A stretch of 64,000 bases of DNA from Escherichia coli (GTDB lineage Bacteria > Pseudomonadota > Gammaproteobacteria > Enterobacterales > Enterobacteriaceae). The stretch lies in NCBI RefSeq assembly GCF_003790525.1, contig NZ_CP033635.1. One strand, 5' to 3'. The notes beneath the pieces are model-generated. The model was not told the origin of the DNA. It saw only the letters and a program-made list of their open reading frames with translations, and ran no database searches. How positions within the stretch are numbered: position 1 is the stretch's first letter; each line of letters opens with the position of its first letter. Positions 17,852 through 17,892 of this stretch are shown in pieces. Made by a program: the position numbers and the translations under genes.

Positions 17852-17892
17852 TGACTCTGGTACGGATGGTCGGGTATCGGCCATCCGTTATG

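Follow-up and report, generated by a model that had tools for sequence, protein, structure and literature searches.

Does a palindrome at the edge of a defence island record how the island arrived, or does it belong to the chromosome that received it? The question is raised by a stem-loop in the window, the 64,000-nt stretch of Escherichia coli DNA analyzed here, where the fimbrial gene yfcO converges on an inserted gene pair (Table 1). The initial annotation had offered two readings: a bidirectional transcript-insulating hairpin, or a REP-like remnant of the insertion boundary. Its description of the structure is confirmed by the sequence, the open reading frames and a terminator scan; the letters (ACGGATGGtcgggtatcggCCATCCGT) and coordinates are as it gave them, and the arms ACGGATGG (17862-17869) and CCATCCGT (17881-17888) form a perfect 8-bp stem, without a U-tract, in the 41-nt gap between the ends of the yfcO (17851) and minus-strand ptuB (17893) reading frames. 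The stem-loop, hereafter hairpin B, begins 10 nt after the yfcO stop, and the ptuB stop codon lies 4 nt off its other side.

Table 1. Features of the yfcO-smrB region, in window coordinates.
Feature	Coordinates	Strand	Description
yfcO	17012..17851	+	StfH/YfcO fimbrial adhesin, DUF2544; last gene of the yfc chaperone-usher operon
lineage-specific 28-nt segment	17856..17883	.	unique to the hairpin B lineage
stem-loop B	17862..17888	+	11-bp stem, loop GGTAT at 17873-17877; stronger as yfcO-sense RNA
right-arm foot TCCGT	17884..17888	.	common to all 658 genomes with the ptuB 3' end
ptuB 3' remnant	17884..18117	-	survives in ~475 genomes; 229/234 identical in locus L002
ptuB	17893..18552	-	Septu HNH nuclease component, 219 aa
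ptuA	18536..19894	-	Septu ABC-type ATPase, 452 aa
smrB-ptuA spacer (smrB stop to ptuA start)	19895..19979	-	promoter-like site; no strong hairpin
smrB	19980..20531	-	Smr-domain ribosome rescue endonuclease; conserved right flank

As plus-strand RNA, sense to yfcO, hairpin B folds beyond these 8 pairs into an 11-bp stem closing a GGUAU loop, the added pairs being a T17870.G17880 wobble (its one G.U), C17871-G17879 and G17872-C17878. The ΔG of this fold is -18.5 kcal/mol, compared with -7.1 ± 2.1 for shuffled sequences; the minus strand forms 8+2 pairs with an internal mismatch and reaches -14.0. The stem is flanked by CTCTGGT before ACGG on the left and by TATGTC after CCGT on the right, with tails of UAUGUCAUGC (plus strand) and ACCAGAGUCA (minus strand). 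Neither side carries a T-run and a consensus terminator scan makes no call there; because it lacks a U-tract, hairpin B is not a canonical intrinsic terminator. When a sliding 31-nt fold was ranked over both strands of the whole 64-kb window (cut-off ΔG <= -14), hairpin B came 19th of 117 local hairpin loci, and is thus strong without being exceptional in the window. By a rough estimate of our own, the chance of a hairpin this strong in a given 41-nt gap is ~0.02; a stronger argument against chance is that the spacer of every one of the 15 alleles examined holds a stem-loop.

The inserted "HNH gene" of the initial annotation proved to be ptuB. PADLOC identifies the 219-aa protein as PtuB (5e-95; named 'HNH endonuclease family protein' in some RefSeq records) and the 452-aa protein as PtuA (1.8e-168), in which Pfam finds AAA_21/AAA_23/AAA_15. 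The 2.1-kb insert is therefore a type I Septu anti-phage pair, with ptuA and ptuB adjacent. Both proteins (17893-19894) also match the PADLOC profiles of retron type I-A effectors (ATPase_I-A, 3.1e-114; HNH_I-A, 1.9e-22); neither a reverse transcriptase nor a ncRNA is present beside ptuAB, and there is no room for a retron ncRNA, so the pair is a stand-alone Septu system. The terminator scan and fold ranking revealed no strong hairpin after ptuB, hairpin B aside, or between smrB and ptuA. Two promoter-like sites were noted, each by consensus match only: CTGACA-18-TAAGAT at 19926-19955 (minus strand), upstream of ptuA, and ATGTCA-18-TAGAAT at 17890-17919 (plus strand), to the right of hairpin B and directed antisense into ptuB. 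The 3601 nt of window 17000-20600 are 100% identical to E. coli strain 165. Across the window and loci L001-L019, yfcO, which encodes the tip adhesin of Yfc fimbriae, is a hypervariable mosaic, most alleles sharing 54-82% of their nucleotides; its 5' and 3' halves can differ in relationship, as in locus L011, which shares 56% of the first 300 nt with the window and 94% of the last 300. In strain E20 (L020, 1-2830), smrB is truncated by ISEc23, of the IS66 family, which stands in place of the yfcO side.

Comparison of spacer alleles places hairpin B in a slot that is filled in every allele examined. A stem-loop begins 2-21 nt past the yfcO stop in 15/15 alleles, with ΔG from -8 to -24 and a T-run in none (0/15). 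The slot may hold B, A or A' (GGGGCC-ATCT-GGCCCC type), the K-12 type C, or REP/BIME palindromes. Hairpin A', (ACGC)GGGGCC-ATCT/ATCA-GGCCCC(GTTGT), is followed directly by CCGTTATGTCATGCGG of the ptuB stop region, and occurs with the full cassette (L004, L005) as well as with a ptuB remnant (L002, L006, L013, CFT073). Hairpin A, CGACGGGGCC-ATCT-GGCCCTGTCG, occupies the empty site of L001, which has no ptuB sequence; hairpin C, GGCAGGGGC-ATTC-GCCCCTGCC, stands in the 70-nt spacer of K-12 and an O157-like strain; and further alleles carry a single REP or a BIME (L016-L019), or an IS621-interrupted REP (SE11). In SE11 (L015, 1231-1460), IS621, of the IS110 family, sits within the REP between TCTTATCAGGCCT and TGTATT. 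The empty-site spacer of L001 has a decayed REP at its end. In strain A36 (L022, ~430-455), the 4-nt loop of A' is inverted from ATCA to TGAT with unchanged arms, a small palindrome-mediated inversion. Since carriers of the insert have B or A', the empty site has an A variant and K-12 has a third hairpin, the slot belongs to the backbone. The slot is conserved and its sequence is not, and the hairpin type is independent of the insert. The yfcO-smrB spacer is a small hypervariable site at which unrelated palindromes, among them three hairpin types, REP/BIME elements and an IS621 target, replace each other while structure is kept.

The slot hairpins are also unequal between strands. The plus strand is the more stable by >1 kcal/mol in 10/15 alleles and three are within 1 kcal/mol; ΔG is equal on both strands in K-12, and the minus strand is the more stable in L014. 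Among nine distinct hairpin alleles, G.U wobbles number 6 in the yfcO sense and 0 on the opposite strand; counted as ~4 independent events, this gives p ~0.06 by our own estimate, which is suggestive only. The asymmetry would fit selection on the yfcO-sense RNA and argues that this is the selected strand, as far as sequence can indicate.

Where, then, does the insert begin? When the empty L001 is aligned with the full L005, the two match across the hairpin as far as ...GT(C/T)GTC and no further. Comparison with the empty site, which had been proposed at the outset, thus defines the left edge of the Septu insert at 17884-17886, just outside hairpin A' and inside the right-arm foot of B, where TCCGT pairs with ACGGA at 17862-17866. 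On the left, yfcO alleles of the L001 type match as far as 17855 (TAGTGAC), and homology to all ptuB-bearing genomes resumes at 17884 (TCCGTTATG...). On the right, alignment among all alleles is regained only at 19980, the smrB stop codon, preceded by no more than a faint 14-nt similarity. No direct repeat flanks the insert, as had been judged by eye, and there is no target-site duplication; the flanks align with a score of 14, against 12.7 ± 2.5 for shuffles (p 0.32). A direct repeat, TAACCGTCGACG, occurs at 17951-17971 and 19936-19956, inside the ptuB 3' end and the smrB-ptuA spacer (12 exact nt, 81% over 21 nt); a repeat of this kind is roughly what chance would give in 8 kb, and the common ptuB deletion does not end there. 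The sequence GTCGACGGGG resembles the left arm of hairpin A in L001.

We surveyed 5426 complete E. coli genomes for the insert and its junction. The cassette body (18200-19894) is present in 183/5426, at >=99% identity and in one chromosomal copy each, and the ptuB 3' end (17884-18113, the first 230 nt past the hairpin) in 658/5426; by difference, ~475 genomes, including CFT073 and S88, hold a ptuB remnant without the intact pair. In L002 (1501-1782), the remnant is followed by 48 nt of unrelated sequence that reaches the smrB stop and does not derive from the cassette. The remnant genomes share this deletion end-point, with 48 unrelated nt before smrB, as seen in loci L002, L006, L011, L013 and L025 (CFT073). 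Remnant and intact copies are 95-99% identical. Read from these sequences, the distribution suggests an old Septu insertion that has mostly decayed, with the intact form recently spread by recombination. Frameshifted or truncated ptuB copies occur at L027, L029 and L030 (207, 191 and 156+63 aa); L004 and H166-H169 encode a 207-aa PtuB and a 404-aa PtuA; and PK12 belongs to a group in which ~200 nt spanning the ptuA/ptuB junction are missing, the match there falling into two pieces with 89% coverage. Such damaged copies point to ongoing decay of the pair.

Hairpin B is rarer than the ptuB 3' end. Searched with a 34-nt query (E <= 10), it occurs in 112/5426 genomes, at a single place in each, and always (112/112) with the 3' ends of this yfcO and of ptuB on its two sides; the other 546 of the 658 ptuB-bearing genomes have a different junction, with hairpin A'. 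Its letters do not vary among any copies seen. The prospect of finding the same hairpin in insert-free genomes, which the initial annotation had raised against a boundary origin, is borne out in part: in ChlosBP-23-1 (L011), and likewise in L036, an identical hairpin stands beside the 234-nt remnant only, and 24 further contigs with the L011 YfcO allele share its arrangement of yfcO, a 314-nt gap and smrB, always in the remnant context. Never was B seen without any ptuB sequence; a ptuB-free copy was found neither in the 5426 complete genomes (E <= 10) nor in 62 further assemblies, and an exact 24-mer scan of metagenome contigs gave two matches, both in the same yfcO-ptuB context. The exact YfcO allele adjoins ptuB in all 38 contigs read and in the 10 neighbourhoods shown. 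Conversely, ~72 genomes carry the cassette at >=99% identity with A' and not B. All four combinations of B or A' with full cassette or remnant therefore exist, which implies recombination between the hairpin and the deletion point ~230 nt away.

A search of genome contigs with PtuB returned only this E. coli locus, in a Citrobacter-labelled MAG, and a 59% homologue in Cobetia; no close copy of the cassette was found on plasmids or phages. The contig in question (L007, DXKH01000145.1; Citrobacter sp.) has a ptuB that is 100% identical and a hairpin B/yfcO 3' end junction that is identical over the compared stretch, and is probably a mis-binned E. coli contig.

These distributions dispose of hairpin B as a scar of the insertion: B is found beside the bare remnant too, A' can accompany the intact insert, and an A variant occupies the empty site. 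What stands of the boundary proposal is the position, the edge falling in the foot of the stem; hairpin B abuts the Septu insert edge without marking it. The REP-like part of that proposal also failed, the hairpin being single-copy and no more similar to REPs than random hairpins.

What the hairpin does is best approached from K-12, where transcript ends have been mapped. Term-seq placed an MG1655 3' end at 2449185 (minus strand), classed as 'primary' for yfcO (Adams et al. 2021; PMC7815308, Supplementary file 1). On the MG1655 sequence, the K-12 hairpin spans 2449212-2449191, and we find the mapped end 6 nt beyond its final paired base. In the K-12 list, only the yfcO strand has a 3' end here (PMC7815308), and the bicyclomycin data of the same study place a Rho termination region at 2449036 (minus strand; score 2.73, p 5.8e-7; Supplementary file 2), 149 nt downstream of 2449185 and antisense to smrB. 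Rho-dependent transcripts are known to end just past stable stem-loops without a U-tract, which protect them against PNPase and RNase II (Dar and Sorek 2018; PMC6061677). Because the K-12 3' end lies 6 nt past its hairpin and the Rho region 149 nt further on, the K-12 structure reads as an exonuclease-blocking stem-loop. We infer that hairpin B behaves likewise, by positional analogy and with a different sequence. By the same analogy, the slot hairpin that every E. coli strain carries most likely caps and protects the end of the yfcO mRNA, and we lean towards hairpin B being a lineage-specific version of this 3'-end stem-loop of the yfc fimbrial operon transcript. The initial idea of a transcript-end or insulating hairpin is thus upheld in general, by the hairpin in all alleles and by analogy with the K-12 3' end; its 'bidirectional' element is not, the evidence pointing to the yfcO strand.

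Under this proposal, yfcO transcription would pass the stop codon into DNA antisense to the neighboring gene, ptuB here and smrB in insert-free strains. The antisense read-through RNA would be untranslated, so that Rho could end it diffusely ~100-300 nt downstream; 3'-to-5' exonucleases (PNPase, RNase II) would then trim the yfcO RNA back to the stem-loop, which would stop them and leave a precise, protected 3' end a few nt past the stem. The sequence downstream of hairpin B shows only a mild C>G enrichment (C/G ratio 1.4-1.7 at 18089-18218, against 0.92 for the whole window). The ptuA-ptuB pair would have inserted between smrB and the pre-existing hairpin slot without a terminator of its own, and the same palindrome, weaker in that direction, would be the first stable structure met where the smrB-ptuA-ptuB transcript ends. 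Because no strong hairpin lies between smrB and ptuA or elsewhere after ptuB, hairpin B is probably also the first barrier for that transcript. Laboratory K-12 expresses the yfc operon poorly, which may leave little selection acting on the operon's 3' end, and the GC-rich palindrome could instead persist for DNA-level or historical reasons.

Two alternatives deserve little weight. A functional part of Septu, for example a regulatory RNA or a DNA structure that PtuAB recognises, might be suspected from a hairpin that adjoins the ptuB stop, beside proteins that match retron type I-A effectors, which work with structured nucleic acid. Yet ~72 genomes have the same cassette with A' in place of B, B persists where Septu is reduced to the 234-nt remnant, the 59% identical PtuB of Cobetia has nothing similar downstream, and the locus offers neither a reverse transcriptase nor room for a retron ncRNA; we regard this reading as barely credible. 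A travelling terminator of the cassette's own was likewise discarded, given the same cassette with A' and the Cobetia homologue without B. As for a degenerate REP of the sort found in other spacer alleles, the same spacer does harbor bona fide REP/BIME elements in L016-L019, IS621 lies inside one in SE11, the L001 empty-site spacer ends in a decayed one, and direct reading of B reveals a CGGAT...ATCCG core in common with Y-type REPs. Against this, B has one place per genome in the 112 genomes (E <= 10) and one match in the 64-kb window at <=3 mismatches; its best local score to eight REPs, taken from the window (25254) and the loci, is 16, compared with 13.6 ± 2.3 for random hairpins of the same design, 18.6% of which score >=16; and GTAG/CTAC, the tetranucleotide beside REP palindromes that underlies RAYT recognition, is absent from both flanks of the stem. 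Membership of the REP/BIME class was rejected on these grounds, and descent from a degenerate REP is very improbable. Rfam returned only noise matches for hairpin B (E ~3-4). Within the 64-kb window, a single canonical Y-type REP was found, at 25254-25284 (GCCGGATGCGGCGTTCACGCCATATCCGGCA, ΔG -22.7).

Two further alternatives concern how the structure arose and which transcripts it serves. Hairpin B might be a by-product, without selected function, of a recombination event that brought this yfcO allele together with a chromosome carrying Septu, either through homology-facilitated illegitimate recombination at the TCCGT microhomology or through template-switch copying that left the junction inverted. 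Such an origin would accord with the 28 nt unique to the B lineage, with the constant company of the ptuB 3' end (in the 5426 genomes, the two metagenome contigs and the 62 further assemblies), with a stem that uses 3-5 nt of insert-side or shared sequence, and with a left flank, TAGTGAC, that matches an allele whose own spacer differs. Moreover, loss of 13 nt from A' would give the right arm, GGCCATC joined to CGTTATG, and the loop inversion of A36 indicates that palindromes at this site do rearrange. An 11-bp stem of -18.5 kcal/mol is nonetheless an unlikely accident, each of the replaced alleles has its own hairpin in the slot, which speaks for a hairpin being kept there whatever its origin, and no intermediate was found among the alleles; a historical origin does not in any case preclude a function. 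We consider a functionless by-product unlikely. A true bidirectional terminator or insulator of yfcO and ptuB, in which a stem-loop in both RNAs fixes the place of RNAP collision and prevents read-through either way, deserves somewhat more weight, while still falling among the less probable readings. In its favor, the palindrome sits in a 41-nt gap between convergent stops and can fold in either RNA (-18.5 and -14.0), and neither the smrB-ptuA interval nor the stretch past ptuB offers the cassette another strong hairpin. The MG1655 genes smrB and yfcO are recorded among the convergent pairs whose transcripts overlap (PMC12288877, Table 1), and a stem-loop was found to be needed for collisions at defined positions between convergent genes (Wang et al., bioRxiv 10.1101/2022.10.23.513370). 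A genuinely bidirectional role by RNAP collision is possible, but the K-12 Term-seq 3' end is on the yfcO strand only, all six wobble pairs (6/6) favor the yfcO-sense strand, a U-tract is absent on both sides, and, with the ptuB stop 4 nt off the stem, a terminating ribosome would cover the stem.

The origin of hairpin B leaves its functional reading as the 3'-end stem-loop of the yfc transcript unchanged. As B is never found without the ptuB 3' end and its stem includes 3-5 nt of insert-side or shared sequence, it may have arisen or been joined after the insertion, either as an imported yfcO allele was joined at TCCGT or by rearrangement of A'. A derivation of B from A' was tried and set aside: only GGCCATC and CGTTATG match, the left 21 nt are unexplained, and no intermediate appears among the A' variants. 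As a tentative and rather doubtful extension, selection may keep 'a hairpin' while its sequence is replaced wholesale, B having been rebuilt after the Septu insertion with the 3-5 insert-side nt as its foot, whether through illegitimate or TCCGT microhomology joining or through template switching in inverted orientation. If true, the rebuilt B would be a datable case in which a 3'-end structure turned over de novo at the junction of a defence island.

On the reading we favor, the palindrome would be an ordinary 3'-end stem-loop and not a mobile-element boundary, and would matter little in itself. Its setting is more instructive: a Septu pair without its own terminator would borrow its transcript end from the host, and the spacer illustrates how structure can be conserved without sequence at operon ends. 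It also advises caution, since a hairpin beside an island need not be an insertion scar.

Compared with known systems, hairpin B has the GC-rich stem-loop of a canonical intrinsic terminator, of typical size and energy (11 pairs, -18.5), but it has no U-tract on either strand and draws no call from the scan. REP/BIME elements, which are thought to act as exonuclease barriers and which Newbury and colleagues reportedly found in 1987 to stabilise upstream mRNA, are likewise extragenic palindromes at operon 3' ends, and fill the same slot in other alleles; hairpin B may work as they do but, unlike them, is single-copy, lacks the REP consensus and GTAG/CTAC, and falls outside their family. Bidirectional terminators between convergent genes, said to have been described by Ju and colleagues in 2019 using SEnd-seq, resemble hairpin B in its palindrome centred in a short gap between convergent stops, but hairpin B lacks their typical flanking A- and U-tracts, and its G.U wobbles and the K-12 3' end are one-stranded. 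The closest likeness is to the protective 3' stem-loops of Rho-dependent transcripts: hairpin B is stable, GC-rich, just past a stop codon and free of a U-tract or upstream A-tract, and is followed by untranslated antisense sequence where Rho can act, differing in that the C>G enrichment downstream is only mild. By analogy, hairpin B is best read as an ordinary member of this known class, the 3'-end stem-loops of Rho-terminated transcripts, possibly shared by two convergent genes.
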